A stretch of 64,000 nucleotides of DNA from an uncultured Solirubrobacterales bacterium. Its GTDB lineage: Bacteria > Actinomycetota > Thermoleophilia > Solirubrobacterales > 70-9. The first letter of the stretch is position 1. Each line of letters opens with the position of its first letter. Shown here in pieces: positions 15,898 to 62,953 of this stretch. The DNA is taken from assembly GCA_963740065.1 (NCBI GenBank), contig CAVUCS010000002.1, positions 126,858-190,857 of the forward strand, read 5' to 3'. Below the pieces are notes generated by a model, which saw nothing but the letters and a program-made list of their open reading frames with translations, had not been told where the DNA came from and did not search any database. A program made the position numbers and the translations under genes.

Positions 15898-16715
15898 CGA
15901 ACCAGCGCGGCGAGATCGTCGATGACGTGATCGGGGGGCGGGTCGGCGGCCTCCGCGTCCGCCCGCGAGGAGGCGCCGCTGAGAACGAGGATCGTCTCCA
16001 GCCCGGCCCTGCGCCCACCCTCGATGTCGGAGGCGATCCGATCGCCGACCATCGCCACCCTCGCGTTCCGCTGCGACTTACCTCTGTCATGCATAGATAA
16101 GTCGCAGCGGAGCGAGTTGAGGGCGAGGTCGAAGAGGTGGCGTTCGGGCTTGCCCCCGATTGCGGCGCGTTTCCCGGAGGCGGTTTCGACGGCCGCCAGG
16201 GTCGCTCCCGTGCCCGGCAACGCACCCCCCGGCATCGGCAGGGTCGGGTCGCGGCTGGTGGCGAACAGGGCCGCGCCGCCCTGCAGGGCGCGGGTCGCGG
16301 TCGCCAGCTCCGCGTAGTCGAATTCGCGGTGGCCGGAGACGAGCACCGCGTCGGCGCCGTGGGCTTCCTCCCCCTCCAGCAACCTCAGCCCGGTCCCCGC
16401 AATGACCTCCTTGAAACCGGGCGCCCCGATCACGAAGGCCGTGCCGTCGTGCCCGGTTGCCTCCGCGGCGAGTCTGGCGGTCGCGGCCCCCGCCGTCACA
16501 ACCCGATCGTCCGCAATCTCAACTCCCGCATCGCGCAGGCGCGCGGCATAGGCGGAGGGCTTCTTCACCGAGTTGTTGGTGACGAACACAATCTCCGTCC
16601 CCTCCGCAAGCAGCTTCCCCAGGGCCTCGACAGCTCCCGGCACCATCTCGGAGCCTTCCCACACCACACCGTCTAGGTCGACCAGAAACCCGTCGAAGTT
16701 GTCCGCGAGCGCCAT
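15894..16715 (-). CDS. HAD-IIA family hydrolase (NagD-like phosphatase) carrying an in-frame hairpin-repeat insertion
   Basis: Carries the FLVDLDGVVW (DxD), VTNNS, GKP and MVGDRIASDIEGG motifs. The GKP-to-GD spacer contains repeat copy A1 (see findings). Confidence 0.8.
   Translation of the reverse strand: MALADNFDGFLVDLDGVVWEGSEMVPGAVEALGKLLAEGTEIVFVTNNSVKKPSAYAARLRDAGVEIADDRVVTAGAATARLAAEATGHDGTAFVIGAPGFKEVIAGTGLRLLEGEEAHGADAVLVSGHREFDYAELATATRALQGGAALFATSRDPTLPMPGGALPGTGATLAAVETASGKRAAIGGKPERHLFDLALNSLRCDLSMHDRGKSQRNARVAMVGDRIASDIEGGRRAGLETILVLSGASSRADAEAADPPPDHVIDDLAALVR
16064..16114. repeat. family A hairpin repeat, copy A1 (inside the HAD-IIA CDS)
   Basis: CCGCTGCGACTTA (16068-16080) pairs with TAAGTCGCAGCGG (16098-16110), plus outer pairs. 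The apex is CCTCTGTCATGCATAGA. Confidence 0.8.
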
Positions 16716-16731
16716 TCGGCGGCTCAGGCTA

Positions 16732-16847
16732 TTGGGCCTATCCCGGTAGGGGTGGAGCGTCTTGTACTTTTTCGTAGCCGGTCATCGCGGACAGCCGCAA
16801 ACGCGGCTCGAAAAAGTTAAGCGGAACCCCTGCCGGGATAGGCCCAA
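16732..16847 (+). repeat. family B structured intergenic element, copy 1 of 3
   Basis: Direct reading: TTGGGCCT-ATCCCGGTAGGGGTGGAGCGTCTTGTACTTTTTCG...CGAAAAAGTTAAGCGGAACCCCTGCCGGGAT-AGGCCCAA. It lies between the divergent HAD-IIA and ABC ATPase genes. Confidence 0.85.
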
Positions 16848-16873
16848 CGCACCGCTCTCGATACGGTGCGCAA

Positions 16874-17614
16874 ATGAGCGAGACACAGACAGCGACGCAG
16901 GTAGTGACCGCGAGCGAGGTGACCCGCCGCTACGGCGAGGGTGCCGCCGCGGTCGACGCGCTGGCGGGAGTCAGCACCAATTTCCAGCGTGGGCGCTTCA
17001 CCGCGATCATGGGCCCGTCGGGCTCGGGCAAGTCGACTCTGATGCACATCCTCGCTGGGCTCGACAAGCCAACCTCCGGCACCGTCACCCTCGATGGCGT
17101 CGAGGTAACCGCGCTCGACGACGGTGAGTTGACCCAGCTGCGCCGCGACAAGCTCGGCTTCGTCTTCCAGTTCTTCAACTTGCTGCCGGTGTTGACCGCG
17201 GAAGAGAACCTGGTGCTGCCGCTCTCGATCGCCGGTCGCAAGCCCGACGACGCCTGGGTGGATCAGCTGATCGGCACGGTCGGGCTCGAGGACCGGCGCA
17301 CCCACCGTCCCTCTGAGCTGTCCGGAGGCCAGCAGCAGCGGGTCGCGGTCGCCCGCGCCCTCGTCTCCAGACCCGCGGTCGTCTTCGCCGACGAGCCGAC
17401 CGGCAACCTTGACTCGAAGGCGAGCGGCGATGTTCTGAACTTGCTGCGGGGGGCGGTCGATGAGTTCGGCCAGACGGTGGTGATGGTCACCCACGATCCG
17501 GTTGCCGCCGCCCACGCCGACCGGCTGATCACCCTCCGCGACGGGCAGCTCGTCCACGACGAGGCGCCCGGCTCCGCGGACGAGGTGATCGAGCTGATGA
17601 AGCAGATCGATTAA
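16874..17614 (+). CDS. ABC transporter ATP-binding protein (MacB/LolD/FtsE-like)
   Basis: Walker A GPSGSGKST, signature LSGGQQQRVAVARAL and Walker B VVFADEPTGNLD. Confidence 0.9.
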   Translation: MSETQTATQVVTASEVTRRYGEGAAAVDALAGVSTNFQRGRFTAIMGPSGSGKSTLMHILAGLDKPTSGTVTLDGVEVTALDDGELTQLRRDKLGFVFQFFNLLPVLTAEENLVLPLSIAGRKPDDAWVDQLIGTVGLEDRRTHRPSELSGGQQQRVAVARALVSRPAVVFADEPTGNLDSKASGDVLNLLRGAVDEFGQTVVMVTHDPVAAAHADRLITLRDGQLVHDEAPGSADEVIELMKQID

Positions 17615-17618
17615 GCAG

Positions 17619-20168
17619 GTGACCGGCCTCGCGGTCAAGAGCCTCTGGGCGCGCAAGTTCCGCGCCTTCACCACGACCCTGGCGGTCGTGATCGGCGTCG
17701 CCTTCGTCGCCGGCACCTACATCCTCACCGACACCACCTTCGCCGCCTTCGACGAGATCTTCAGCGACTCGCTGAAAGGGACGAGCGTCGTCGTCACGGC
17801 CAGAGATGCGGTGGAGCAGGATACGGGTGAGATTCCAAGTTTCAGCGCCGCCCTGTTGCCGAAGGTAAGAAGAACCCCGGGGGTGAGACTCGCCGCCGGC
17901 GCGATCTTCACTCCGGGCGGGTTCTTTGACGCCAGAGGCGATGCGATCGGCTCGAGATTTTCACCGAAGTTCATCTCTTCGACCATGCCCGGCGAATTGG
18001 AGTCGCTCACATATGTAGAGGGGAGATCGCCACGCTCACCCGACGAGGCCTCGTTGGACCAGTCGGCGGCGGATGAAGCCGGGATCGGGGTCGGTGACAC
18101 GATCAGACTCGCCTCGGTCAGCCGCGTCAAGAGCTATCGCCTGGTCGGCCTAACCAAGCTCGGCGACACTTCCTTTGGCGGCGCCAGCATCGCCCAGGTG
18201 ACCCTGGGGGAGGCGCAGCGGATCACCGGCAAGCGCGGGCGCTTCGACCAGATCTCGGTTGCGGCCCAGTCGGGCGTTTCGGCGGCGACGCTCAAAGAGC
18301 GGATCCAGCGCGTCGTTCCCCCCTCCGTCCGAGTCGAAACCGCAGAGGAGAACGCCAACCGCTCCTCTGACCAGATCCGCGACAACCTCGGCTTCCTCCG
18401 CATCGCCCTGCTGGTCTTTGCCTTCGTGGCCCTTTTCGTCGGCGCCTTCTTGATCTTCAATACCTTCTCGATCACCGTCGCCCAGCGGATCACCGAGTTC
18501 GGGATGCTGCGCACGCTCGGCGCCGGGCGCGGGCAGATCCTCACCACGGTCGTGGTCGAGGCGCTGGCGATTGGCCTGCTTGGCGCCGTGCTCGGACTCG
18601 CCGCCGGCTTCGGCATCGCCAAGGGGCTGAACGCTCTCTTCGTAGCGATCGGCATCGACCTGCCGACGACGGCGCTGGTGCTGAAGGACCGAACCATCGT
18701 CGCCGCCTTCACGATTGGCATTCTCGTCACTCTCGTCTCCTCGTTCGTGCCGGCGCTGCGCGCCACCCGGGTGCCGCCGATCGCGGCGCTGCAAGCGCTG
18801 GAGATTCCGGTCAGTCGCCGCCGCCGGGCCGTCTACGCGGGGCTGGCGGTCCTGCTCGGTGTCGCCGGCATGGCGATGGTCCTGATCGGACTCTTCGGTG
18901 GCGCCGGCGGAGGCGAGGCGGCGGGGTTGATGGGTGCCGGCGCGGTCGCGGTCGTCCTCGGCGTCTCCCTCTTCAGTCCGCGGCTGGTGCGGCCGCTCGC
19001 CTCAATCGCCGGCTGGCCGCTGCAGCGCATGCGCAAGCTGACCGGGCGCCTCGCTCGCGAGAACACCCAGCGCAATCCCGCTCGCACGGCGGTTACCGCG
19101 GCGGCGCTGATGATCGGCCTCGCCGTGGTCGCCTTTGTCACCGTTTTCGCCGCCGGAATCAAGGGCTCGATCGCCAGCGCGATCGACGACAGCTTCCAGG
19201 GGGAGTTGGTGATCCAGAACAGCGACGGCTTCTCGCCGATCTCCCCTGGCGCCGCGGCGACGGCTCGTCATATTCCCGGGGTGGAGACGGTCTCCACCCT
19301 GCGCGCCACCCAGGCGAAGGTGGAGGGCGCTTCGGGCAAGCCGCGGATTTCGGCACTTGGCCGCGACGCCGGCAGAGTGCTGACCATCGACTGGACGGAG
19401 GGAAGCCCGGCGACGCTGCGTCGCCTCACCGACGGAGAGGTGATCCTCGACAAGTCCTTCGCCTCCTCCAACGGCTTCGAGCTGGGGGACCGGGTCCGTT
19501 TCCTCACCCAGATCGGCAAGCGCCCCACTCTCAGAGTGGTGGGCGAGTTCGAGGACAACGCCGACCTGCTCGGCAGCGCCCTCGTCACGCAGCGCTTGAT
19601 GGCGACCGAATTCGACCAGACCGATGATGTCTTCGATTTCGTCAAGCTGGCGCCGGGAGCGGACGCGAACAGAGTGCAGGCGGCGATCACAGCGGCAATG
19701 GATCGCGCTTTCCCGACCGCGGACGTTCTCAACCAAGCGGAGCTGAAGCAGAATCAGGAAGACCAGGTCAACCAGCTGTTGGGGTTGATCTACGCCCTGC
19801 TCGGGTTGGCCGTGATCGTCTCCCTGTTCGGAATCGCCAACACGCTGGCGCTCTCTATCCATGAGCGCACTCGGGAGCTGGGGATGCTGCGCGCGATTGG
19901 AATGTCCCGCCGCCAGGTGCGGACGATGATTCGCTACGAGGCGGTGATCACGGCCCTGATCGGCGCGATCCTCGGCATGGTGCTCGGCGTGATCTTCGCG
20001 GCGTTGATCGCCCAGCCGCTGAAGGACGAGGGCTTCACCCTCTCCTACCCGATCGGGACGCTGATCGGCCTGCTCGTCTTCGCCGCGATAGCCGGCGTGA
20101 TCGCGGCAATTGCCCCGGCTCGTCGCGCCTCGCGCCTAGATGTCCTGGAGGCGCTGCAGTACGAGTAA
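17619..20168 (+). CDS. ABC transporter permease with two FtsX/MacB-type domains
   Basis: 849 aa with two repeats, each a large extracytoplasmic domain followed by FtsX-like TM bundles. Adjacent to the ATPase. Confidence 0.85.
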   Translation: MTGLAVKSLWARKFRAFTTTLAVVIGVAFVAGTYILTDTTFAAFDEIFSDSLKGTSVVVTARDAVEQDTGEIPSFSAALLPKVRRTPGVRLAAGAIFTPGGFFDARGDAIGSRFSPKFISSTMPGELESLTYVEGRSPRSPDEASLDQSAADEAGIGVGDTIRLASVSRVKSYRLVGLTKLGDTSFGGASIAQVTLGEAQRITGKRGRFDQISVAAQSGVSAATLKERIQRVVPPSVRVETAEENANRSSDQIRDNLGFLRIALLVFAFVALFVGAFLIFNTFSITVAQRITEFGMLRTLGAGRGQILTTVVVEALAIGLLGAVLGLAAGFGIAKGLNALFVAIGIDLPTTALVLKDRTIVAAFTIGILVTLVSSFVPALRATRVPPIAALQALEIPVSRRRRAVYAGLAVLLGVAGMAMVLIGLFGGAGGGEAAGLMGAGAVAVVLGVSLFSPRLVRPLASIAGWPLQRMRKLTGRLARENTQRNPARTAVTAAALMIGLAVVAFVTVFAAGIKGSIASAIDDSFQGELVIQNSDGFSPISPGAAATARHIPGVETVSTLRATQAKVEGASGKPRISALGRDAGRVLTIDWTEGSPATLRRLTDGEVILDKSFASSNGFELGDRVRFLTQIGKRPTLRVVGEFEDNADLLGSALVTQRLMATEFDQTDDVFDFVKLAPGADANRVQAAITAAMDRAFPTADVLNQAELKQNQEDQVNQLLGLIYALLGLAVIVSLFGIANTLALSIHERTRELGMLRAIGMSRRQVRTMIRYEAVITALIGAILGMVLGVIFAALIAQPLKDEGFTLSYPIGTLIGLLVFAAIAGVIAAIAPARRASRLDVLEALQYE

Positions 20169-20175
20169 CTCCGCC

Positions 20176-20218
20176 CCGCTGCGACTTATCCCTGTATGTC
20201 AGAGATAAGTCGCAGCGG
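20176..20218. repeat. family A hairpin repeat, copy A2
   Basis: CCGCTGCGACTTATC / GATAAGTCGCAGCGG with inner CTG/CAG and a TATGT loop. It lies between the convergent ABC permease and esterase genes. Confidence 0.85.
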
Positions 20219-20222
20219 AACG

Positions 20223-21284
20223 TTAGGCCAGGCCCATGCGCAGGGCGCCCGCGGCCTCTGACATAGCCGCCCGGGCTGAGCGGCTGACCGCCGTCATGTT
20301 GGCGAAGCCGTGGATCAGGCCCGAGTGGCGCCGTAGCGCGACGTGTGTGCCCGCCTCCCGCATCCGCTTCGCGTAAGCCTCGCCTTCGTCGCGCAGGGGG
20401 TCGAAGCCGGCCGTGGCGACGTAGGCGGGGGCGAGGCCGGAGAGGTTTTCGGCCCGCAGCACCGAGACTCGTGGGTCCGATCCGTCCTCCTCATTGGGCA
20501 GGTAGTTGTGGTCGAACCAGTCCATGTCGCCCGCCGTAAGCAGGAACCCATTGGCGAACAGCCGCCGTGAGTCTCCACCCGTGAAGTCGGCCACGGGGTA
20601 GATCAAGAGCTGCATCGCCGGAGTCGTTCCGCCGTCGTCGCGGGCGAGCAGGCTGGTGACCGCCGCTAGGTTGCCGCCGGCGCTGTCGCCGCCGACGGCG
20701 ACGCGGTTTGGGTCGACTCCCAGGTCCCCGGCGTTCGCGGTTGCCCAGCGGAAGGCAGCCAAGGCGTCGTCCACGGCGGCGGGGAACGGGTGCTCCGGGG
20801 CCAGCCGGTAGTCGACGGAGAGGACTGGGAGCTCCGCGTTGGCGGCGAGGAAGCGGGCGGTGGAATCGTGGGTGTCGAGGTCGCCGATCACCCAGCCTCC
20901 GCCATGGAAGTAGACGAATAGCGGCGAGGGTCCCGCGGCGGAGTTGCTCGGCGTGTACAGCCGGGCGGGGATCGCCCCCGCCGGCCCCGGAATATCCAAG
21001 CGCTCGACTCGATCCATCGGCAGGGGAAGCCCGGCCACTGTTGCCGCTCCGCGCCGGTTTTCCGCCCGCGCCCTCTCTGGACTCCTGCGCCCCTCTCCGG
21101 TTACGGAAGCGTCGCCCGCCGCGGCCGACAATCGTAAGAAGGCATGGATGTCGCTTTCCAACACCTGCCCGTCGATTTCCGGGGGCGCCCCAAACAACAA
21201 TCGTTGGGCCCCGGCCGGCAACCCGCACGCGGCCCGCAGGATCCGATGCTCCGTGCGCACGGAGAGGCGAGGGAGGGCGGCCAC
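20223..21284 (-). CDS. alpha/beta hydrolase, hormone-sensitive-lipase-type esterase
   Basis: HGGGW oxyanion motif, GDSAGG nucleophile elbow and a C-terminal HGF. The exact start is uncertain. Confidence 0.8.
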   Translation of the reverse strand: MAALPRLSVRTEHRILRAACGLPAGAQRLLFGAPPEIDGQVLESDIHAFLRLSAAAGDASVTGEGRRSPERARAENRRGAATVAGLPLPMDRVERLDIPGPAGAIPARLYTPSNSAAGPSPLFVYFHGGGWVIGDLDTHDSTARFLAANAELPVLSVDYRLAPEHPFPAAVDDALAAFRWATANAGDLGVDPNRVAVGGDSAGGNLAAVTSLLARDDGGTTPAMQLLIYPVADFTGGDSRRLFANGFLLTAGDMDWFDHNYLPNEEDGSDPRVSVLRAENLSGLAPAYVATAGFDPLRDEGEAYAKRMREAGTHVALRRHSGLIHGFANMTAVSRSARAAMSEAAGALRMGLA

Positions 21285-25966: not shown

Positions 25967-26671
25967 ATGATGCGGGCGAGGGCCGCCGCAAAGGCGGAAT
26001 CTGCAAAAGAAGTTGCAGGCGATGCGATCGCCGCGGTCAAGCCGAAGCTGCGCGGCGTCTCCCATGAGTGGGCCTTCTTCGTCTCACTCTTCCTTGGCGG
26101 CGGGCTGATTGTCGCTGCCGACAGCCCAACGGCGACCGTCGCGGTCGCCATCTACGCCGCCAGCCTCTCCGCCCTGCTCGGCACCAGCGCCCTCTACCAC
26201 CGGGTCAACTGGAGACGCCCCAGCGTGCGCCTTTGGATGCGCCGCCTCGATCACTCGATGATCTTTTTCCTGATCGCCGGGACCTATACGCCTTTCGCTC
26301 TACTCGTCTTGAACGGCCCGCTCGCCGACGCCGTCCTCGCGGTCGTCTGGATCGGCGCGATCGCCGGCGCGATCGTCGAGATGGTTTGGATAGAGCACCC
26401 GAAATGGGTTGCGGCGCTCATATATGTGTCTTTGGGATGGGTGGCGATCATCGCCTTCCCCGGACTGTGGGATGAGATGGGGATGACGGGAACCATGCTG
26501 GTCGCCGCCGGAGGCCTTCTCTACACCGCCGGCGCGATCGTCTACGCGACCCAGCGCCCCAATCCCTTCCCGCGCGTCTTCGGCTATCACGAGGTATTCC
26601 ACGCCCTCGTCATCCTCGCCGCCGCCGCCCAGTTCGCCGCCATCGCCTTCTACGCCCTCCCCGCTGAATAG
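25967..26671 (+). CDS. hemolysin III / PAQR-family membrane protein
   Basis: 7-TM protein with YHR..W....R.LDHS and HxxxH-type (HEVFHALV) motifs. Start at ATG 25967; the upstream part of the track ORF is antisense to nrdJ. Confidence 0.8.
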   Translation: MMRARAAAKAESAKEVAGDAIAAVKPKLRGVSHEWAFFVSLFLGGGLIVAADSPTATVAVAIYAASLSALLGTSALYHRVNWRRPSVRLWMRRLDHSMIFFLIAGTYTPFALLVLNGPLADAVLAVVWIGAIAGAIVEMVWIEHPKWVAALIYVSLGWVAIIAFPGLWDEMGMTGTMLVAAGGLLYTAGAIVYATQRPNPFPRVFGYHEVFHALVILAAAAQFAAIAFYALPAE

Positions 26672-26786
26672 AGCCCCATCCCGGTAGGGGTGGAGCGTCT
26701 TGTGCTTTTTCGGCGCAGCGGCTCGCGGTAAGCCGGAAACGCTCCTCGAAAAAGTTAAGCGGAACCCCTACCGGGATGGGGCTCTA
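26669..26786 (+). repeat. family B structured intergenic element, copy 2 of 3
   Basis: TAGAGCCCC-ATCCCGGTAGGGGTGGAGCGTCTTGTGCTTTTTCG...CGAAAAAGTTAAGCGGAACCCCTACCGGGAT-GGGGCTCTA. It fills the whole gap between two convergent genes. Confidence 0.85.
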
Positions 26787-27530
26787 CGCCAACGCGGCAG
26801 CGGCGCGCTCTTTGGCCGCTTCGATCAACGCCAGGACCTGTGTCTCCTTGCCCTCGCGCAGGAGGACGACCGGGTCGGGGTCGCCGTTGACGATCCCCTC
26901 GAAGAACTCCTTGCGGTCCTGGTAGGTCGGCAGTGTCCCCTTCGCCCAGCCGCGGGCATCGTTGAGGACGATCGCCAGGCGCGCGTACTCCTCGCCGAAC
27001 AGCTCGGAAACCTCGCGCTTCATCCGCTTTGCCAGGGCGGGGGAGGCGCCGGCGGTCGAGATCGCGATCGCCAGCGGCCCGGTGCGGACGATCGCCGGCA
27101 GGATGAAGTTGCATAGCGGCGGCACGTCGACGACGTTGACCAGCATCGCCCGCTTCTCGGCGTCGTCGTAGACGCCGATGTTGACCTCGCTGTCGTCGGT
27201 CGCGGCGATTGCCATGAAGATGCCCTCGAGGTCGGGCGCTCCGGCATAGGGGCGCTTCTCCCACTCGATCGATCCCTCCTTGGCAAGGTCCTCCAGCTCT
27301 GGGTGGGCGACCGGCGCGATCAGCGTCACGTCGGCGTCGCAGGCGAGCAGTCCCTCGACCTTCTCCAGGCCGATGTCGCCGCCGCCGATCACGACGCAGC
27401 GCCGCCCTCTCAGCTTCAGGCAGGCGATGTAGAAGGGGGTCTCCAACATGTCCCGCACGCAGGACTGGTCGCAGATCCCTTTGCGGAGCTGACAGACGCA
27501 CTCCTTGCCGGCATAGGCCTGGGCTGGCAC
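26784..27530 (-). CDS. precorrin-2 dehydrogenase / sirohydrochlorin ferrochelatase (siroheme synthase N-terminal type)
   Basis: Rossmann motif [16 protein letters not shown] and CysG-N/Met8-like length. The start may be the internal Met (MLETPFY). Confidence 0.72.
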
Positions 27531-31437: not shown

Positions 31438-31518
31438 GCCCGCGGGTCCTGTCATGGGGGGAGGGGGCGCTGCGGGCGGGGTCGTCCTCGACCCCCCTCC
31501 CCCCATGCCACCCGCGGG
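31438..31518. other. G-run/C-run long imperfect hairpin between tmk and holB
   Basis: CATGGGGGGAGGGGG (31453-31467) pairs with CCCCCTCCCCCCATG (31493-31507). It is flanked by two CCCGCGGG boxes (31438-31445, 31511-31518). Confidence 0.7.
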
Positions 31519-31539: not shown

Positions 31540-32598
31540 GTGAGTCTCGCCGGCCTCGAAAAGTGCACCGAGCATCAGCCGCGGGTGCGGGTGGCGTTGA
31601 GCGCGGCACTACAAGCCGGCCCCACACACGCCTACCTGTTCCGCGGGCCACGCGGCTCGGGGAAGAGGGCCGCGGCCCGCGCCTTCGCCGCTGAGATTCT
31701 CGCCGGCTCCTCCGAAGACGCCGACGATGCCCGCCGCCGCGCCCTGCTCGACCCTTCGCCTCACCCGGACCTCGTCTGGATCGCCCCGCGCGGCGCCCAG
31801 CATCTGGTCGAGGAGGTGCGAGAGGGGGTGATCCGCGCCGCCGCCTACCGCCCCTTCGAAGGGGGCAAGCGCGTCTTCGTGATCGAGGCCGCCGAGGCGA
31901 TGAGAGACGAGAGCCAGAACGCGTTGCTCAAGACCTTGGAGGAGCCCCCCGATTACGCCCACCTGATCTTGCTCAGCGCCGAGCCGGAGCTCCTCCTCGA
32001 AACGGTCGCATCCCGCTGCCAGACGGTCGACTTCGCTCCGCTTCCGGTCACGGCGGTCGAGACGGCGCTCGAAGGGGTCGCTGACCCGCATGAGGTCGCC
32101 GCCGCCGCTCGCCTGTCGGCCGGCGACCTCGAACGCGCCCGCTTCTTGCTCACTGCACCAGGAAGGAAGCTGCGCGCCGCGGCTGAGCGCTCGGCTTGGA
32201 AGCAGCTGCTCAAATCCGCGGAAGAGGTGGGCGAGGATGCCGAGGCGGCGACTCGTGAGGCGTTGGAGGAGGAGAGAGCGGCCGGGGTGAAGCGTTCCGC
32301 CAGAGACGTCAACGACGAGGCGCGGCGCGCGGCGCGGCGCCGCCGCACGGAGGTCCTCGACCTCGGGTTGGAGTTGGCCGCCGCCTGGTTCCGCGACTTG
32401 GCCGTCATCGCTTCCGATGCTCCCGAGGTCGCCTACAACCAGGACCGCCTCGACCAGCTTCAGGCCCGGGCGGAGGAGATCGACCTGGCGGAAGCCCGCC
32501 GCGCCGCCGAGCTGATCCAGGACACCCGTCGCCGCCTCGACCTCAACGTCTCCGAGGAGCTGGCCTTAGAGGCGCTATCGGTTCGCCTTATGGGGTGA
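31540..32598 (+). CDS. holB: DNA polymerase III subunit delta prime
   Basis: AAA+-like HAYLFRGPRGSGKR, the NALLKTLEEPP box, and position downstream of tmk. Confidence 0.8.
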   Translation: MSLAGLEKCTEHQPRVRVALSAALQAGPTHAYLFRGPRGSGKRAAARAFAAEILAGSSEDADDARRRALLDPSPHPDLVWIAPRGAQHLVEEVREGVIRAAAYRPFEGGKRVFVIEAAEAMRDESQNALLKTLEEPPDYAHLILLSAEPELLLETVASRCQTVDFAPLPVTAVETALEGVADPHEVAAAARLSAGDLERARFLLTAPGRKLRAAAERSAWKQLLKSAEEVGEDAEAATREALEEERAAGVKRSARDVNDEARRAARRRRTEVLDLGLELAAAWFRDLAVIASDAPEVAYNQDRLDQLQARAEEIDLAEARRAAELIQDTRRRLDLNVSEELALEALSVRLMG

Positions 32599-38234: not shown

Positions 38235-38301
38235 GCGCAACCCTCGGCCTTCATGCCCCCAACCTACCCGAGCCGCGGGCATCGTTTTCACGTCTCGCAA
38301 C

Positions 38302-47715: not shown

Positions 47716-47757
47716 CGCGCTGCAGGCTATCGACCCCTGCCGCCCCGCCCGCCGAGA

Positions 47758-47810
47758 CCCAGGTGAAACGCATACGCCGGCTATTTCACCGCGTATGCGT
47801 TTCACCTGGG
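47758..47810. repeat. hairpin H3 (20-bp perfect stem) between divergent zwf and gnd
   Basis: CCCAGGTGAAACGCATACGC-CGGCTATTTCACC-GCGTATGCGTTTCACCTGGG. Confidence 0.85.
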
Positions 47811-47832
47811 TGGTGGCCAGTAGGGTTGGGGC

Positions 47833-50290: not shown

Positions 50291-50959
50291 TCAGGACAAC
50301 GTCAAATGTTCCACGGCGCTCCCACGTCCAACCAGGACTTCACTGACCATAGCCGCTGGGAAGAGGCCGTGTGCGGCTATGCCGGGATCCGCTTCCAGCC
50401 GCGCGGCGAGCGCGGTGGGGTCGCCGACTTCGCCGTTGAAGTCGGCGATCACGCCGGCGTCTGGGCTACGCGGAGCGTCGCGCAGGGCAACCGCGTCGCC
50501 GAGGCGGGCCAGGGTGGAGCGCAAGCCGAAGGCGAACAGCTCCAGCGGGACGGGTGAAACCAGCGCGTCGACCGGCTTGCTGGAATCGGCGATCACGACG
50601 AAGCGGTCGGCCGCCGCGGCGACGATCTTCTCGCGCAGGTGGGCGCCGCCGCCGCCCTTGATCAGCCAGCCGTCCGGAGTCACCTGGTCGGTGCCGTCGA
50701 TCGCGATGTCGAGCCGCTCCAACGTTCCGAACTCCTCGACTGGGATGCCGAGCTCCTTCGCCTGCTCCTCGGTGGCGATCGAGGTGGCGACGCAGCGGAT
50801 GCCGTTCAGCCCTCGGGCGGCGATCGCCGGCAGCAGCAATTCAACGGTTGAGCCGGTCCCCAGCCCGACGGCCATCCCGTCTTCGACCAGCTCCGCCGCG
50901 GCCTCCGCCGCGATTTGCTTCTCTTCGATCGCCGCGCACTCACCGGTGAAACGCGTCAC
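50291..50959 (-). CDS. rpiA: ribose-5-phosphate isomerase A
   Basis: VGLGTGST, IDGTDQV and KGGGGAHLREK motifs. Confidence 0.85.
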   Translation of the reverse strand: MTRFTGECAAIEEKQIAAEAAAELVEDGMAVGLGTGSTVELLLPAIAARGLNGIRCVATSIATEEQAKELGIPVEEFGTLERLDIAIDGTDQVTPDGWLIKGGGGAHLREKIVAAAADRFVVIADSSKPVDALVSPVPLELFAFGLRSTLARLGDAVALRDAPRSPDAGVIADFNGEVGDPTALAARLEADPGIAAHGLFPAAMVSEVLVGRGSAVEHLTLS

Positions 50960-50991
50960 ATAGGACGCTTTGCGTCTATGCTCGCGAGACG

Positions 50992-51570
50992 ATGGATGCG
51001 CGGGTTTGGCTGACGGGAAGCGATGGGGCGCCGATCTCGGTGGCGCTCGCTGAGCGGACGGTGGTCGGCCGCGATCCCGAGGCGGACATCTCCCTCGATG
51101 ACGAAGCGGTTTCCTGGCACCACCTCGAGATTGAGGATCGCGGCGGTGTCTTGATGGCGACCGATCTCGACAGCCGCAACGGCACTGTGTTGAACGGCGA
51201 GCCGCTCGACCGGCCGCGGCGGCTGCGCGACGGTGACGTCCTCACCCTTGGCGAGCACCGCCTGGAGGTCTCGGACAAGCTGCCCGGGCGGGCCGGCGCC
51301 ACCGTGCCCGTCGCCGAGCCTTCCGTTCCGCTCAGCGAGGAGGAGCGGGCAACGGCCACGGCGCTGGTCGCCCCCTACCGCAGTGAGGGCGCCTTCGCCG
51401 GTCGCCCCGCCACCCGAGCCGAGATCGCCGAAGCGCTGCACGTCAGCGAGCGGACCGCCCAGCGCCGCCTCGACGCCCTCGCCGCAAAGCTCGACATTCC
51501 CGGCGACTCCGGTCGCGAGCGCCCCCGCCTGATTGCCGCCCGCGTGATCGAGCTCGGCCTGGACCGCTGA
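50992..51570 (+). CDS. FHA-domain protein with a C-terminal HTH
   Basis: FHA core (VGRDPEADISLDDEAVSWHHLEI...SRNGTVLNG) and a C-terminal HTH-like segment (RAEIAEALHVSERTAQRRLDAL). Confidence 0.75.
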   Translation: MDARVWLTGSDGAPISVALAERTVVGRDPEADISLDDEAVSWHHLEIEDRGGVLMATDLDSRNGTVLNGEPLDRPRRLRDGDVLTLGEHRLEVSDKLPGRAGATVPVAEPSVPLSEEERATATALVAPYRSEGAFAGRPATRAEIAEALHVSERTAQRRLDALAAKLDIPGDSGRERPRLIAARVIELGLDR

Positions 51571-51616
51571 GTTTGTCGTTTGGGGTCATATTGCCCTCCA
51601 AACGACAAACTCAGCG
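51565..51616. repeat. hairpin H4 (19-bp stem) overlapping the FHA-gene stop codon
   Basis: CGCTGAGTTTGTCGTTTGG-GGTCATATTGCCCT-CCAAACGACAAACTCAGCG. The TGA of the FHA gene is at 51568-51570, in the left arm. Confidence 0.85.
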
Positions 51617-51737
51617 TGGGGTAGTGGCTCGGAGCGGGCCAAACGTGGCCCGATGGGCGTCGCCGTTGTCGTTGGCGCGCCCGCCTTGGGCCAGCAGCAT
51701 CGGTTGAGCAACCGCAACCGACCCGAAAGGGACCTCA

Positions 51738-52817
51738 ATGCTCAACCGAACGCTTCTCATCTCGCTTCTTGCCCTCTGCGCGCTGGCGATTCCCGCCGGC
51801 GCCTCGGCGGCGTCCGCCGATTCCGGCGCGGTCGTCTTCTCTCGCGCGGTCGTCGATGCCGACGGCGTCGAGGGTGGTCTCTATGCCGCTCGCAACCACC
51901 ATCTCAACCAGCTCACCGAAGACCCGACCGACAGCCAGCCCAATTTCTCCGCCGATGGCCGCACGATCGCCTTCGTTCGCGGTGGCGACATCTGGGCGAT
52001 GCGGGCCGACGGCTCCGGGCAGCATGTCCTGACCTCCGGCGCCGACCTCGACGGGCGGCCGCTGGTTTCGCCAAATGGTCGCTACGTCGTCTTCGAGCGC
52101 CGCTCGGCCGCGGACGCGCCGCGCGACCTCTACACGGTGCGGATCGGTGGCGGCGAAGCTCGCTCGCTCGCTTCCTCGCCGGTCGACGAGCGCGAGGCGA
52201 CATTCGCCCCCGACGGCTCCGCGATCGCCTTCGTCCGCGCCGTCGCAGCCGCCGACGGCAGCGCACGGGACGATGTCTTCTCGGTTCGCCCGACGGGATC
52301 TCGTTTGCGGCGGCTTACGCGCACCGCCGGGATCGACGAGTTCGCGCCGCGCTGGTTCGCCCGCGGCAGAGGCATCGTCTTCAGCCGCGGCAAGTCCGGC
52401 GACGGGCCCGGCGCCTACGCCGACGTCTACATCATGCGCAGCAACGGTCGCAAGGTCCGCCCGCTGGTTCGTGGCGCCGGCTCGGCTTTCGTCGAGGACG
52501 TCGGCAACAACGGCAGGGGGATGCTCCTCTTCCGCCGCGACCAGGGTCTCTGGGTTAAGCGGATCGGATATGGGCGCGCCCGCAAACTGACCGAGGTCGC
52601 CGACGGCTCCGCCACCAACGCCGTCTTCTCCTCGGACGGCCGCAGGGTCGCCGCTTTCGTCGCCACAGATGAGGACGAGTCGCTCTCCTCGCTCGACGTC
52701 CGCACCGGTCGCGCCACCAACCTCGCCTACGGCTTCCACCTGGCCGACGGCGAGGTCGCGTCGACGGTCGGCCCGGTGATCGCCTGGCAGCCGGTTCGCC
52801 AGGCTCGCCGCCACTAA
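51738..52817 (+). CDS. secreted TolB-like PD40 beta-propeller protein
   Basis: Signal peptide and repeated P.FS.DG..IAF / SP.G..VVF PD40 motifs. The equal-length antisense ORF has no motifs. Confidence 0.7.
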   Translation: MLNRTLLISLLALCALAIPAGASAASADSGAVVFSRAVVDADGVEGGLYAARNHHLNQLTEDPTDSQPNFSADGRTIAFVRGGDIWAMRADGSGQHVLTSGADLDGRPLVSPNGRYVVFERRSAADAPRDLYTVRIGGGEARSLASSPVDEREATFAPDGSAIAFVRAVAAADGSARDDVFSVRPTGSRLRRLTRTAGIDEFAPRWFARGRGIVFSRGKSGDGPGAYADVYIMRSNGRKVRPLVRGAGSAFVEDVGNNGRGMLLFRRDQGLWVKRIGYGRARKLTEVADGSATNAVFSSDGRRVAAFVATDEDESLSSLDVRTGRATNLAYGFHLADGEVASTVGPVIAWQPVRQARRH

Positions 52818-52900
52818 GCGCGGATATGCCGGGAGCCGGGCGCGGCGACGCGCCCGGCTCCCGCGCTTCGCGTGCGCGGCCTATAGCCTGCGCTCGCCCA

Positions 52901-53644
52901 ATGCCGTCCCAGCCGAAGATCGTTCTCCACGCCGTCCCCTTCTCGCACCCGGTCCTTGCGGTGAGCGGCGCCCTCGACTATCTCGACCTTGAGTACGAGA
53001 CGGTGCAGCTGGTCCTCGGCAAGCAGGCCGAGGAGGTTGAGCGCATCTATGGCGAGGGGCGCAAGACCGTGCCCGGGCTGTTGGTGGACGACGAGCCGGC
53101 GCACGGTACGGCTGCGGTTTTCTCGCGCATCGACGAGTTGCGGCCGGACGGCGGTCTCTATCCGGCCGCGGTCGCGGATGCCGTGCGCGAGGCGGAGGCC
53201 GGCCTCGCGCAGGAGATTCAGCAGACCGCGCGGGTGCTCTCCTTCGGGGCGCTGTATTTCCGCCCGGAGTCGATGGGCACGTTCTCGGGAATTGACCAGC
53301 TCGACCCGCGCGGGGTCGACTTCGCGATCAAGTCGGTGCGCGCCGCCTGGCGCTACCTCGGAATCACCGCCGAGCTGGTCCACGCCACCCTGCAGGAGCT
53401 TCCGAAGCAGCTCGACGCGGTGGACGCCCTCGCCGACATTGGAGCGATCGGCGGCGAAGTCCCCACCGCGGCCGACTTCCAGCTCGGCTCCACGCTGCAC
53501 CTGCTCGATCAGATCGCCGATCTGCGCCCGCTGCTCGCCGACCGCCCCGCGGGCGCGCTCGCTCCCGCCTGGTTCGAGAAAGGCGCGGGCGACATCACGG
53601 CCGGCGCTTTCCCGCCCGGCTGGGTCCCGGCGCCCGGTCGATAG
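52901..53644 (+). CDS. glutathione S-transferase-like (thioredoxin-fold N-domain) protein
   Basis: From Met 52901: IVLHAVPFSHPV...LEYETVQL...KTVPGLLVDD matches the GST N-domain pattern. Weak call. Confidence 0.5.
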   Translation: MPSQPKIVLHAVPFSHPVLAVSGALDYLDLEYETVQLVLGKQAEEVERIYGEGRKTVPGLLVDDEPAHGTAAVFSRIDELRPDGGLYPAAVADAVREAEAGLAQEIQQTARVLSFGALYFRPESMGTFSGIDQLDPRGVDFAIKSVRAAWRYLGITAELVHATLQELPKQLDAVDALADIGAIGGEVPTAADFQLGSTLHLLDQIADLRPLLADRPAGALAPAWFEKGAGDITAGAFPPGWVPAPGR

Positions 53645-53678
53645 CCGCTCCAGCCCCGGGCGAAGGTATAACCGCCTC

Positions 53679-55493
53679 GTGGCGGAACCCGCAATCGGCT
53701 CGGCGCTCGGCGGCTATCGCATCGATGCGCTGATCGCGCGCGGCGGGATGGGGGTCGTCTACCGGGCTACGCACCTGGCGCTGGACCGGCCGGTGGCGCT
53801 GAAGGTGATCGCCGCACATCTCGCCGCCGACGACGGGTTTCGCAGTCGCTTTCTGCGCGAGTCGCGCCTCGCCGCGCGCCTCGACCACCCCAACGTGGTG
53901 CCGGTTTTCGACGCTCGCGAAGAGGACGGCGAGCTGATCGTCGCGATGCGCCTGGTCGAGGGCGGCGACCTGAAGAGAGCGATCGACCGTGAGGGACCGC
54001 TGGCGCCCGATCGCGCGATCGAACTTCTGGGGCAGATCGCCGCCGCGTTGGACGCCGCTCACGCCGCCGGGATCGTCCATCGTGACGTCAAGCCGCACAA
54101 CATCCTCGTCGATGGCGACCGCGCCTACCTCTCCGACTTTGGCCTCGCCAAGGCCGCCGGCGACTCCGGCCTGCTCAGCGAGGCCTCGGTGGTCGGCACC
54201 GCCCAGTACATGTCGCCCGAGCAGTGGCGGGGTGAGCAGATCGGCCCCGCCGCCGACGTCTACTCGCTCGGTTGCGTCCTCTATGAGGCACTGACGGGGG
54301 TCGTTCCCTACGCGCGTCGCGAGGGCGATGCTGAGCCGCGCATGCCGAGAGGGTTGGACCAGGTGATCGAGCGGGCGGTCTCACCCGACGCCGATGCTCG
54401 CTACCAGAGCGCGGGGGAGTTGATCGAAGCCGCCCGCGAGCATCAAGGGGCTACGCCGGCCCCGACGCTCGTCCTTTCCGAGACTCCCGGCAGGAAGACC
54501 GCGGTGCTCTCTGAGGAGAGCGGTCGGCGCGGCTTTCGCGAGTGGCTTGGCGCGAAGGCGAAGAGCGCGGCGATCACCGTCGGCGGCATCCTCGTCGTGA
54601 TCCTCGTGGCCTTCGTTGCCCAGAAGCTCTTCGGAGGCGGCGATGTCTCCGTTTCCGACCCGATTCCGATCGGCAAGGGCCCACTGAGGGTCGCGGTCGG
54701 CGCCCGCTCTGTCTGGGTGACCAGCGCCGGCGACGGAACTCTTTCCCGGATCGATCTTGCGACCGAGGGAGTCGCGGGAAGACCGCTGCACCTCGGACGG
54801 GGAATCGCCGGTGTTGCCGTCGGCGAAGGCTCGGTCTGGGTCACCAGTTCCCGCACCGGCGAAGTCCTGCGGGTCGACGGGGATGCCGGCGCCGTTGAGG
54901 ACCGGATCGATGTAGGCGGGCGCCCGGGCGCGATTGCCTTTGGCGGCGGCAGGGTTTGGGTCGCCGACCAAGCCGGCGGGGGAATAGTCGCGATCAACGC
55001 AGTCGGCGGGCGAGTGTTCAAGCGCGGCATCGCTCCCCACGTCGCGCCCCTGCGGCTCGCCGTCGGCGCGGGCGGCCTCTGGGTCAGCAGCGCCGAGACC
55101 GGCAACGTGCGCCGGGTCGACCTTGGCGACGCCCTCGCCGCCGACCCGATCGCCGTCGGGCGCGGCCCCTCGGGAGTCACCGTCGGCGGCGGCGTGGTCT
55201 GGGTCGCCAACAGCCGCGGCGACAGCGTCACCCGCGTCGATCCGGCGACGAGGACGCTGCTCGGAGAACCGATCGCCGTCGGCGATCGCCCGGGGGGCAT
55301 CGACGCCGGCACCACCGCGGTCTGGGTCGCCAACTCCGCCGACGGCACCGTTACCCGGATCGATATCGAAAACGGAGAAACCGAGGGCGACCCGATCTCC
55401 GTCGGCGCCGATCCTGGCGCAATCGCTGTCGGCTCGGAAGCGGTCTGGGTAGCCAACAATGGCGACGGCACCGTTACCCGGATCGAACCGTAG
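53679..55493 (+). CDS. Ser/Thr protein kinase with a TM segment and an extracellular beta-propeller (NHL/YVTN-like repeats)
   Basis: GGMGVVYRA, ALKV, HRDVKPHNIL, DFGLAKA and SPEQ motifs, then a TM segment and ~6 repeats of G..P.GVAVG.G.VWV. GTG at 53679; the upstream part of the track ORF overlaps the GST-like gene. Confidence 0.85.
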   Translation: MAEPAIGSALGGYRIDALIARGGMGVVYRATHLALDRPVALKVIAAHLAADDGFRSRFLRESRLAARLDHPNVVPVFDAREEDGELIVAMRLVEGGDLKRAIDREGPLAPDRAIELLGQIAAALDAAHAAGIVHRDVKPHNILVDGDRAYLSDFGLAKAAGDSGLLSEASVVGTAQYMSPEQWRGEQIGPAADVYSLGCVLYEALTGVVPYARREGDAEPRMPRGLDQVIERAVSPDADARYQSAGELIEAAREHQGATPAPTLVLSETPGRKTAVLSEESGRRGFREWLGAKAKSAAITVGGILVVILVAFVAQKLFGGGDVSVSDPIPIGKGPLRVAVGARSVWVTSAGDGTLSRIDLATEGVAGRPLHLGRGIAGVAVGEGSVWVTSSRTGEVLRVDGDAGAVEDRIDVGGRPGAIAFGGGRVWVADQAGGGIVAINAVGGRVFKRGIAPHVAPLRLAVGAGGLWVSSAETGNVRRVDLGDALAADPIAVGRGPSGVTVGGGVVWVANSRGDSVTRVDPATRTLLGEPIAVGDRPGGIDAGTTAVWVANSADGTVTRIDIENGETEGDPISVGADPGAIAVGSEAVWVANNGDGTVTRIEP

Positions 55494-55606
55494 GGGACCA
55501 TCCCGGTAGGGGTGGAACGTCTTGTACTTTTTCGCGACAGCCGCTCGCGGTAAGCCGCAAACGTTCCTCGAAAAAGTTAAGTGGAACCCCTACCGGGATG
55601 GTCCCC
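55493..55606 (+). repeat. family B structured intergenic element, copy 3 of 3
   Basis: GGGGACC-ATCCCGGTAGGGGTGGAACGTCTTGTACTTTTTCG...CGAAAAAGTTAAGTGGAACCCCTACCGGGAT-GGTCCCC. It lies between the kinase stop and tkt. Confidence 0.85.
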
Positions 55607-55644
55607 CCGAGCGACGCTTGAATCGCTAGGGTCGGAACTCGGTC

Positions 55645-58760: not shown

Positions 58761-58771
58761 CCCAACCGACG

Positions 58772-58818
58772 TTCCGCTGCGACTTATCCCTGTATGTCAG
58801 GGATAAGTCGCAGCGGAA
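58772..58818. repeat. family A hairpin repeat, copy A4
   Basis: TTCCGCTGCGACTTATCCCTG-TATGT-CAGGGATAAGTCGCAGCGGAA, a 21-bp perfect stem between tal and pgi. Confidence 0.9.
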
Positions 58819-58824
58819 GGCTTC

Positions 58825-60453: not shown

Positions 60454-60455
60454 GC

Positions 60456-61838: not shown

Positions 61839-61842
61839 CCGG

Positions 61843-61885
61843 CTGTGTCGCCTTTGTATCGGTATGCGAAACAAAGGCGACACAG
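61843..61885. repeat. hairpin H5 (15-bp stem, GGTATGC apex) between cydA and cydB
   Basis: CTGTGTCGCCTTTGT-ATCGGTATGCGAA-ACAAAGGCGACACAG. Homologous to H2 (shared CGYCTTTGT..GGTATGC..ACAAAGRCG). Confidence 0.85.
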
Positions 61886-61896
61886 AGGTGGGCGCG

Positions 61897-62901
61897 ATGA
61901 GCCTCGCCGACGTCTCCGCAGTCATCCTCTGGGCCGGGGCCACCCTCTACGCGCTCTTCGGCGGCGCCGACTTCGGCGCCGGCCTCTGGGATCTGATCGC
62001 CGGGGACGATCAGCGTGGAGAGCGACCCCGCGCCTTGATCCAGCGCTCCCTCACTCCCGTTTGGGAGGCGAACCACGTTTGGCTGATCTTCATCCTGGTT
62101 GTCCTCTGGACCGCCTTCCCCGAGGCCTTCAGCGCGGTGATGACGACGCTGTACGTGCCGCTGACGCTGGCCGCGTTCGGGATCGTCTTGCGCGGCGCGG
62201 GCTTCGCCTTCCGCAAGTCGATCCACTCCTTCCAGGCGCGGCGGGCGATGGGGGCAACCTTCGCCCTTTCCTCGGTGCTGACCCCGTTCTTCATGGGGTG
62301 CGTCGTGGGGGCAATCGCATCCGGCAACGTCCCCGCCGCCGGTGACGGCGACGCCTTCGCAAGTTGGATTGAGCCGCTGCCGTTGCTGACCGGGGCGCTG
62401 TTCGTCGCCAGCGGCGCCTATCTGTCGGCGATCTTCCTGATCGGCGACGCTCGCCGGGCCGGCGCAAGCGACCTCGAGGATTACTTCACTCGCCGCGCCC
62501 TCGCCGCTTCGCTGGTCGCGGGCGCCTTTGCCGTCGCCGGCATCTTCGCCCTGCGCGCCGACGCCCGCTACATATACGACGGCCTCACCAGCGAGGGCCT
62601 GCCGCTGGTGATCCTCTCGGCCCTCTGCGGCCTGGCGGTCGTGGTTCAACTGCTGCGCCGCGATCGCCGCGGGCTGCGCCCGCTCGCCGCCGGCGCGGTC
62701 GTCGCCGTGATCTGGGGCTGGGGCGTCGCCCAGTTCCCCTACCTGCTTCCGACTTCGCTGAAGATCTCCCAGTCGGCGGCTCCCTACGACACCCTGCTGA
62801 TCGTGCTGATCGTCTTCTGCATCGCCGCGGTGATCGTGCTGCCATCGCTCGGGCTCCTCTACTGGCTCACCCAGCGTGATTTGCTCGAGGCCGAGCACTA
62901 G
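61897..62901 (+). CDS. cydB: cytochrome bd ubiquinol oxidase subunit II
   Basis: Typical CydB N-terminus (LYALFGGADFGAGLWDL) and 8 TM. ATG at 61897 after a GAGGTG SD; the upstream part of the track ORF spans hairpin H5. Confidence 0.85.
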   Translation: MSLADVSAVILWAGATLYALFGGADFGAGLWDLIAGDDQRGERPRALIQRSLTPVWEANHVWLIFILVVLWTAFPEAFSAVMTTLYVPLTLAAFGIVLRGAGFAFRKSIHSFQARRAMGATFALSSVLTPFFMGCVVGAIASGNVPAAGDGDAFASWIEPLPLLTGALFVASGAYLSAIFLIGDARRAGASDLEDYFTRRALAASLVAGAFAVAGIFALRADARYIYDGLTSEGLPLVILSALCGLAVVVQLLRRDRRGLRPLAAGAVVAVIWGWGVAQFPYLLPTSLKISQSAAPYDTLLIVLIVFCIAAVIVLPSLGLLYWLTQRDLLEAEH

Positions 62902-62902
62902 C

Positions 62903-62953
62903 CGTTCCGCTTGGCCTTTTCCCGGACATACAGGGAAAAGGCAAAGCGGAACG
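62903..62953. repeat. family A-related hairpin repeat, copy A5 (same outer stem, different inner stem)
   Basis: CGTTCCGCTTGGCCTTTTCCC-GGACATACA-GGGAAAAGGCAAAGCGGAACG, 20 of 21 positions paired, directly after the cydB stop. Confidence 0.8.

Follow-up and report, generated by a model that had tools for sequence, protein, structure and literature searches.

The window analysed here is a stretch of 64,000 nucleotides (64 kb, 67% GC) from the genome of an uncultured Solirubrobacterales bacterium, in which a sequence-only reading had listed eleven hairpins (A1 to A5, H1 to H5 and one between tmk and holB). All eleven are indeed present. They are probably copies of several related, lineage-specific and non-autonomous palindromic repeat families of one Solirubrobacterales clade, similar to repetitive extragenic palindromes (REPs), MITEs (miniature inverted-repeat transposable elements) and Rickettsia palindromic elements (RPEs). 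As close relatives diverged, single sites gained and lost copies, which persist where harm is small: past stop codons, between convergent genes, at operon junctions and in frame within protein surface loops. Sequence constraint lies on the arms rather than on the tip, and both arms change in concert.

For comparison, 157 loci of relatives were used, comprising metagenome contigs and loci of metagenome-assembled genomes (MAGs) and cited below by L-numbers (L068 to L157). The relatives sampled for hairpins and transposases amount to about 470 kb, and the hairpin census, in which 105 hairpins were counted, to 471 kb. Gene calls were based on GC content at third codon positions and on Pfam. Long perfect stems are far more frequent in the window than expected by chance: 12 stems of at least 11 bp and nine of at least 15 bp were found, compared to 0.9 and 0.0 in 30 dinucleotide shuffles of the window.

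Arms and loop of the family A repeat

Hairpins A1 to A5 form one repeat family, TCCGCTGCGACTTAT-N15-ATAAGTCGCAGCGGA, with five copies in the 64 kb. A metagenome scan, for which only the two 12-nt arms were prescribed and the centre was left unconstrained, returned 39 family A copies on 37 contigs, and the gap between the arms was always exactly 15 nt. Thirty-five of these 37 contigs originate from one sample, and their DNA is syntenic with the window and 82–90% identical to it. Contigs of this sample recur in a MAG titled Solirubrobacterales bacterium, and the repeat itself recurs, among the matches listed, in MAGs titled Solirubrobacterales, Conexibacteraceae and Thermoleophilia. From metagenome contigs, MAG loci and the window, 54 unique copies were assembled.

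The family A palindrome measures 45–51 nt. Its 15-bp arm (TCCGCTGCGACTTAT) is invariant, the inner stem of 5 bp often contains one mismatch, and the loop comprises 5 nt (consensus CGTTCCGCTGCGACTTATCCCTG-TATGT-...). A G.A mismatch or bulge at distance 4 from the axis, near the tip, is present in 20 of the 54 copies. The information content of the 54 copies is about 2 bits per position at distances 8–22 from the axis and 0–1.2 bits in the loop; the conservation at distances 20–22 was not imposed by the search pattern. Beyond about 25 nt from the axis no conserved sequence was detected in 106 aligned half-sites. A longer element with C-rich and G-rich outer arms was also considered and discarded, as the same alignment revealed only a compositional skew and frequent stop codons. 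Mismatches of the G.T and C.A type, whose asymmetry would be a sign of selection at the RNA level, were about equally frequent in family A (12 vs. 11 at distance 23, 6 vs. 4 at distance 6). On both strands, two of the three reading frames of family A contain no stop codon.

The sequence-only reading regarded a shared apical TATG (or CATA on the other strand) as a possible conserved recognition or nicking core. The apex strings themselves are as it had given them: TATGT in A2 and A4, ACATA (the reverse complement) in A5, CTATGC in A1 and A3, GGTATGC in the hairpins at 38301 and 61843, CCATAGC at 32593 and TCATAT at 51565, while H3 at 47757 carries GCGTATGCG in its stem. The role assigned to them does not agree with the family alignment, in which the arms are conserved and the tip is the least constrained part. 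A total of 48 distinct 15-nt centres occur among the 54 copies, and TATG or CATA is found in 22 copies. A YATR loop is present in 37 copies (TATG 15, CATG 9, TATA 8, CATA 5), and the ancestral loop is probably of the type YATR-N (TATGT or CATGY). Orthologous copies give the same picture. For A2, three genomes differ at 0 of 28 arm positions and at 3–4 of 15 centre positions; for A4 the values are 0 of 30 and 4 of 15; and the loops among seven orthologous A1 copies include GCATG, AATAC, GTATA, AAATA and GCAAA. Since the centres vary among family A copies and among orthologues, and since registers differ, the TATG/CATA tip of family A is an inherited, rapidly drifting loop and does not represent a conserved core for recognition. 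In the sister families, such tips belong to a general tendency towards loops containing ATA or TAT. It is the outer and middle parts of the stem that are conserved in families A and G, and the centre that varies, which is the reverse of the conserved centre with variable flanks that had been proposed.

An enrichment of TATG/CATA at hairpin tips does exist when the tip sequence itself is shuffled as a control. Nevertheless, the ten cases on which the proposal was built are not independent, because five of them are one repeat family whose loop is common by descent. Among the non-A hairpins of the window, 5 of 8 tips contain the motif (0.30 expected). For non-A hairpins with at least 15 pairs the count is 11 of 36 in window and relatives together (1.56 expected) and 6 of 29 outside the window (1.26 expected, P ~0.001); three of these six are family A variants. 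ATA or TAT is the more general feature of the tips, being present in 21 of the 36 non-A hairpins, and ATAG/CTAT (13 of 36) is as common as CATA/TATG. Furthermore, the register of TATG differs, as it occupies loop positions 1–4 in family A (TATGT) and positions 2–5 in the hairpins at 38301 and 61843 (GTATG). AT-rich alternating loops may simply be how unconstrained or extrusion-friendly centres look in a GC-rich genome.

Gain, loss and concerted change of the copies

Presence and absence of copies could be followed at several syntenic sites. A2 (20172–20222) is located between the convergent stops of an ABC permease gene (17619–20168, +) and a lipase gene (20223–21284, −). It is found at the same site in the window, in L120/L151 and in L150, and is absent in the more distant L152, L153 and L157. 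At the A2 site of L156 (6535–6547) a 13-nt mini-palindrome, TTCCGCAGCGGAA, consists of the outer six bases of each arm, the interior being gone. This sequence is unique among the 157 loci and looks like an excision or deletion footprint retaining only the base of the stem.

A4 (58770–58820) lies between tal (end at 58760) and pgi (ATG at 58825), is bordered by CATGAC on each side, and supplies from its right arm the GGAAGG that resembles a ribosome-binding site. The close relative L132 has A4 with identical arms and a different centre. H5 (61840–61888, loop GTATG) has an intra-operon position between cydA (end at 61838) and cydB (ATG at about 61897), with CGATGA on each side. In L111, whose cydA is 86% identical, the pairs tal/pgi, cydA/cydB and cydB/HAD overlap by GTGA or ATGA and hold no hairpin; the overlap is ATGA for cydA/cydB and, in L111 as well as L112, GTGA for tal/pgi. 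L112 (cydA also 86% identical) has overlapping tal/pgi and cydB/HAD genes, and its cydA–cydB junction holds a different hairpin of another family. Family A copies are present at topA/tmk in the close relative L118 and in L124 near the site corresponding to window position 9600, and the window has none at either site. L118 lacks H2 and has a different hairpin with the loop CTATAG there; it also lacks the tmk–holB palindrome, its spacer measuring about 76 nt compared to 141 nt in the window, and it carries a family B copy at a site that is empty in the window. H4 is part of a 1.9-kb segment (FHA/PD40; window 50945–52871 vs. L132:1034–1052) found only in the window and absent from L132.

A4 and H5 are the only hairpins flanked by 6-bp duplications, and both are at ancestral ATGA/GTGA gene overlaps. 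As the duplications preserve the upstream stop and the downstream start codon, selection can explain them. Target-site duplication as a general property, which these two loci had suggested, was rejected by a family-wide cross-copy control: five 6-mer direct repeats (2.5 expected) and one 7-mer (0.7 expected) flank the 54 family A copies.

Small indels of accessory genes were observed beside hairpins at three places, one of them being the 1.9-kb segment just mentioned. The segment L120:3016–3946, which corresponds to window 20219–20223, contains CsoR-like and DUF4396 genes according to the Pfam labels of syntenic loci. The segment L124:7192–7963, which corresponds to window 8814–8825, contains two short open reading frames (ORFs) resembling a toxin–antitoxin pair, as judged by eye from the translations. 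No transposase is present in either of these two segments of relatives. Hairpin sites may coincide with recombination breakpoints.

With regard to genes, 8 of 43 family A copies are flanked by the ends of convergent genes, and a further 14 are located past a single gene end. At least three copies are in frame within coding regions. A1 (16052–16126; core 16066–16112, TCCGCTGCGACTTA...TAAGTCGCAGCGGA) lies in a HAD-IIA hydrolase gene (15894–16715, −), where it is translated as LRCDLSMHDRGKSQRN and adds 12 residues; most HAD homologues have 261 amino acids and lack exactly those 12 residues. The insert at this site is carried by seven species, and its cores resemble one another far more closely than the gene around them does. 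The copy is of the TGCGACTT type in the clade of the window and of the TGTTCC type in L152, which also has an intergenic copy of the TGTTC type. Copies with TGCGACTT are absent from the 15–21 kb read of each of L152, L153, L156 and L157. The possibility that A1 was inserted once in the distant past and then inherited vertically was considered as well and receives no support from the gene tree, which comprises one short gene. The other two in-frame copies (3098–3144 and 3855–3905) are in L113:1116–4703 (+), an ORF of 1195 amino acids comprising hydantoinase A and B. The first bridges the junction of hydantoinase A and B (SAATYPRISGISRSG) and the second is inside the Hydantoinase_B domain (SAATYPGHAGISRSG), and the apparent gene fusion may have been created by the element.

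The arms remain complementary while their sequence changes, as had been expected from the perfect but differing stems. When the seven A1 orthologues are compared, pairing is seen in 90% of cells, and changes on both sides have occurred in 9 of 20 pairs; none of 500 shuffles reached the observed level, and slid registers gave 34–49%. The compensated changes include a three-base block, CGA to TTC, in both arms. Similarly, the outer stem of H1 is retained in its L118 orthologue, where the inner stem has another sequence and is still paired. Subfamilies matching the covarying variant blocks are found at other places of the same genomes. Together with the near-identity of the HAD inserts and the non-monophyly of the proteins bearing them (see below), this suggests either that the copies are homogenised, through gene conversion or re-insertion from other copies, or that their sequence is strongly constrained.

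Further hairpins, family B and genomic context

Stems had been described as specific for each locus. They turned out to be specific for families: besides the five copies of family A, at least H1, H3 and H5 have relatives in related Solirubrobacterales genomes. For A5 and the hairpins at 38301 and 51565, looser relatives but no close copy were found in the 470 kb sampled. The inner TTTGT..CC module is common to many families, so that "superfamily" appears to be a fair word for them. H3 (47757–47811), located between the divergent zwf (−) and gnd-like (+) genes, belongs to the CATACG subfamily of a "GGTG[AC]AACG" family and has paralogues at L147:3433–3477 (91% identity over 45 nt, including the loop), L147:4934, L149:113 and L119:4855. 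Looser relatives are known for the other two, as the inner module TTGACC...GGTCAA of H1 fits the "GACATTGACC" family and H5 resembles a copy at L145:1001. H1 (32593–32640) has arms that include the stops of the convergent holB (TGA, 32596–32598) and DUF2304 (32631–33038, −) genes. H2 (38301–38351) is a perfect palindrome of 23 bp with the loop GTATG in the divergent region between an MFS efflux gene (−) and an MBL-fold gene (+), and H4 (51565–51616) is a perfect palindrome of 19 bp whose first bases take in the TGA stop of an FHA-domain gene (50992–51570, +). The notion that stems often include a native stop codon applies only to the hairpins at 32593 and 51565, whereas elsewhere the stop is 0–27 nt outside the stem.

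The remaining family A copies of the window are A3 and A5. A3 (43852–43902) is an AGTTAT variant 1 nt past the efeB stop codon (43904, −), with recQ (−) downstream of the element. A5 (62903–62953; CGTTCCGCTTGGCCTTTTCCC...), immediately past the cydB stop (62901), is a diverged variant with a flipped apex (ACATA). It belongs to a variant series, TGTTCCTT, TGTGCCTT and ACTTTTCC, in which both arms deviate from family A in concert; related variants are at L119:1656, L128:703, L068:6572, L147:2218 and L126:3727. The eleventh hairpin (31438–31518), between tmk and holB, is a G-run/C-run palindrome without TATG. Long palindromes of this kind (e.g. AGGCAGGGGGGGTCGCC...) were also seen at window positions 1531–1590 and at L131:1068–1137, and they may be one more family.

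A repeat of 111–115 nt is probably what the sequence-only reading had named family B. The window contains three copies on the plus strand: 16729–16850, a long hairpin element upstream of an ABC ATPase gene; 26667–26788, between convergent hemolysin-III-like and siroheme synthase genes, where the outermost TAG...CTA takes in the stop of the minus-strand gene; and 55489–55610, directly past the stop of a kinase gene (55493) and upstream of tkt. Outside the window, copies are found at L111:15338–15461, L118:1135–1258, L152:9867–9989, L155:126–248 and L156:9865–9986. The repeat folds into a long hairpin, in which an outer helix of 22 bp covaries, the asymmetric internal loop is conserved and the central hairpin is variable. 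A G.U pair is invariant, and the copies always have the same sense as the adjacent genes. The outer 9–12 bp of the arms vary among copies and pair perfectly inside each copy. The concerted change of the arms is thus seen on a larger scale in family B, with compensation at 10 of 40 pairs, and the orthologues in L152, L155 and L156 have compensated changes in the outer stem. No match to family B was obtained in Rfam, and family B could be a mobile structured RNA element.

The kinase gene upstream of the third copy (52989–55493, Ser/Thr kinase) contains in its C-terminal part five tandem-like repeats of about 101–123 nt (54654–55486). They fall in the Vgb_lyase or beta-propeller-like part and are probably repeated protein blades.

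The housekeeping genes of the window comprise the nuo operon, serS, genes for ribonucleotide reductase, topA-tmk-holB, zwf, gnd, pgl, rpiA, tkt-tal-pgi and cydAB. The cydA product is 82–88% identical to proteins named Solirubrobacterales by NCBI. The best-scoring model for holB is NCBIfam PRK07940, the actinobacterial type. No transposase, integrase or Y1/HUH family was found when about 50 ORFs of the window were scanned against Pfam or NCBIfam, and the GC skew does not switch within the window. Three loci of relatives, L123 (9.5 kb, six elements), L147 (6.2 kb, five) and L119 (13.9 kb, five), have a palindromic element in almost all intergenic spacers, and in L123 a gene for a PD-(D/E)XK endonuclease (PDDEXK_5; 7589–8407) lies between copies.

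Alternative explanations, known repeat systems and implications

It is unlikely, in our judgement, that the hairpins are REP-like substrates of an HUH (Y1) system, in which a REP-associated tyrosine transposase (RAYT) or an enzyme of the insertion sequence (IS) type IS200/IS605 would bind the hairpin and introduce a nick at the apical TATG or close to it. Transposition of IS200/IS605 (Y1) leaves no target duplication, and the lack of a family-wide duplication would fit this. The elements are palindromic, mostly extragenic and present in high copy number, as REPs are, and irregular hairpins are typical Y1 substrates, with which the G.A irregularity near the family A tip agrees. CATG-type centres are also known from some REPs of Stenotrophomonas (PMC3686654). 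However, the copies are singletons and not REP doublets, the defining 5′ GT[AG]G is missing from family A, the apex is the least conserved part and the register of TATG varies among families. Y1_Tnp is absent among the ORFs of the window and among those between closely spaced copies (hydantoinase, F420H2-dependent quinone reductase, SnoaL-like, PDDEXK_5). A tblastn search of about 470 kb with IS608 TnpA and Escherichia coli RAYT queries gave no match, which is a weak negative result. A role as host RNA hairpins, i.e. terminators without a U-tract or stabilisers of mRNA 3′ ends that are not mobile DNA and evolve at their present sites through selection for pairing, appears very unlikely. It would account for the many copies that start 0–27 nt past a stop codon or lie at the gene ends counted above, for pairing that is kept through compensatory changes and for the invariant G.U pair and constant sense of family B; asymmetric family A apices were oriented 9 to 3 with respect to the incoming gene, which is not significant. 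Nevertheless, none of the eleven hairpins has a T-run behind it, and none was called by a terminator scan, whose calls were at the level of shuffled sequence. The flanks are G-rich or C-rich. The 15-bp arms are identical across loci and orthologues although neutral sites have diverged, and copies come and go between close relatives, with the footprint in L156 as an example. Copies also occupy divergent promoter regions (38301, 47757), intra-operon sites at ancestral overlaps (A4, H5) and three coding regions, positions that fit poorly with hairpins existing to terminate transcription. Rfam 15 gave no hit at the gathering score; with E values up to 1 the only hairpin hit was a mir-6794 microRNA precursor at 32589–32642 (32 bits vs. 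a cutoff of 74 bits), which is a chance match to a long hairpin.

The sequence-only reading had also suggested that the stems arise by foldback or template switching, a small core folding back and the local flank being copied as an inverted duplicate, so that unique and perfect arms containing gene ends result. We hold such an origin to be highly improbable. Its attraction lies in arms that co-vary in multi-base blocks between orthologous copies (CGA to TTC), in the outer base pairs of family B that differ among copies and pair within each copy, and in the arms at 32593, which hold both convergent stop codons. Moreover, it is documented that a single template-switching event can create or repair a perfect stem (PMC8794818). 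But the arm sequences are family sequences common to many unrelated loci, and no resemblance was seen between the inserts at tal/pgi and cydA/cydB and the sequence flanking the empty sites of relatives. A1 and A3 had suggested that the palindrome extends into the flanks in a manner specific for each locus; this was rejected, since beyond 25 nt from the axis there is no excess of complementarity within the same copy (6.57 of 15 positions) over that between different copies (6.45 of 15; P = 0.26). The covarying blocks match subfamilies of the same genomes, so that conversion from other copies or re-insertion fits at least equally well. Template switching as a process that maintains, and does not originate, the arms is conceivable, though we regard it as rather doubtful.

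Several observations weigh against our interpretation of the hairpins as mobile repeat families. About half of the family A copies have no adjoining gene end that could be called with confidence under strict criteria. The source genome was read in the 64-kb window alone. A target-site duplication is absent family-wide, direct repeats flanking the 54 family A copies matching the cross-copy control. No mobilising enzyme was found in the sequence searched, and mobility is deduced from presence/absence patterns. At the A1 site, the inserts of L150, L151 and L154 differ at no more than 3 positions over the 45-nt core while the genes are 75–81% identical, and the insert-bearing HAD proteins were not monophyletic in any of 200 bootstraps of a tree that comprises a single short gene. 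For both reasons simple vertical inheritance is insufficient, and either repeated insertion at this specific site, an exchange of alleles or a strong constraint on the sequence has to be assumed for the HAD inserts. Finally, the 11 of 36 non-A hairpins with TATG/CATA exceed about 2.5-fold a crude positional expectation of about 12% per hairpin, which is our own estimate, and this residual enrichment may reflect a shared constraint on loops.

If the hairpins are mobile repeats, as we prefer to read them, a trans-acting enzyme encoded elsewhere would recognise the stem and spread the element, or ectopic gene conversion would do so. The complementarity of the arms would then be kept by selection for the hairpin together with homogenisation, either by gene conversion from other copies or by template switching within the palindrome, and some copies may incidentally serve as hairpins at mRNA 3′ ends.

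Comparison with described systems places the elements outside the definitions of REPs and MITEs, as new, lineage-specific palindromic repeats that are REP-, MITE- and RPE-like. With the REP/REPIN-RAYT systems of Pseudomonas, Enterobacteria and Stenotrophomonas they share short, GC-rich, mostly extragenic palindromes in high copy number (PMC3116915, PMC3686654, PMC5581495), the frequent location between convergent genes or at the 3′ end of a gene, a division into lineage-specific families and subfamilies, and the lack of an obvious target duplication. REPs are defined by a conserved 5′-terminal tetranucleotide, GT[AG]G, next to the palindrome (PMC3686654). Unlike them, the elements described here have no GTAG or GTGG at the foot of the family A consensus or in the H hairpins, and family B has GGTAGGGG within the stem, replaced in three of eight copies by GGCAGGGG, for which the partner is compensated. 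They are single long palindromes with stems of 20–23 bp and not intergenic inverted doublets of imperfect REPs of 20–25 nt; no RAYT was found in the sequence available, some copies (the three or more mentioned above) are in coding frames, and the host is an actinobacterium of the Solirubrobacterales.

RPEs were reportedly first described by Ogata et al. in 2000. Like these (PMC1458961), the elements are palindromes that are found between genes as well as in frame in coding genes, where they are retained and translated. RPEs are AT-rich, measure about 100–150 bp and are restricted to Rickettsia, whereas the repeats studied here measure 45–55 nt (family B about 115 nt), have no sequence similarity to RPEs and reside in a free-living soil lineage with 67% GC. 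The resemblance is thus one of behaviour only and not of membership. Bacterial MITEs such as Correia, ERIC and RUP (reviewed in PMC10969869) are likewise small and non-autonomous. Their terminal inverted repeats allow them to fold as long hairpins, their presence is polymorphic, and they enter operons and provide signals for regulation. Most MITE-like is family B, with its about 115 nt and terminal inverted repeats of 17–22 bp. Family A differs in that a family-wide target-site duplication is absent, no parent IS is known and the whole element is one palindrome. Elements derived from IS200/IS605 insert 3′ of a fixed tetra- or pentanucleotide and have asymmetric subterminal hairpins. The repeats described here, by comparison, have no conserved flank beyond [CG][GC][TC]TCC in the 106 half-sites and form a single symmetric palindrome. 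Outcomes of template switching (quasi-palindrome correction; PMC8794818) resemble the perfect stems and the multi-base compensatory changes of the A1 orthologues and of family B. This is a mutational mechanism and not a class of elements, and it leaves the same arms at dozens of unrelated loci unexplained.

Solirubrobacterales are abundant soil actinobacteria that have been little studied. The literature searched contained no description of their repeat content and no paper in which their name occurs together with REP or RAYT terms. An undescribed hairpin-based process of propagation or homogenisation in Thermoleophilia, in which a folded single-strand intermediate has both arms regenerated from one template, seems improbable to us. 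If true, it would account for perfect stems that drift in concert and for block-wise compensated changes at orthologous sites, including a coding gene. It would likewise explain near-identical HAD inserts at the same codon, by recurrent site-specific integration or replacement, and near-precise excision leaving only the 6-bp stem base, and the YATR/ATA preference of the loops would mark the point of fold-back or nicking.

For the apex idea the value of the present data is mainly corrective, in that the shared apical motif is not a recognition core. The orthologous copies inside genes offer a clean natural test of how hairpins are maintained, i.e. by selection, gene conversion or template switching. 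With about a dozen hairpin elements per 64 kb this clade is densely populated by palindromic elements, which split ancestrally overlapping gene pairs, bring along stop codons and sequences resembling ribosome-binding sites and add peptide segments to enzymes. Their density matters for annotation, where ORF callers read through elements, as in the hydantoinase "fusion" of L113, as well as for the assembly of MAGs and for models of operon expression.

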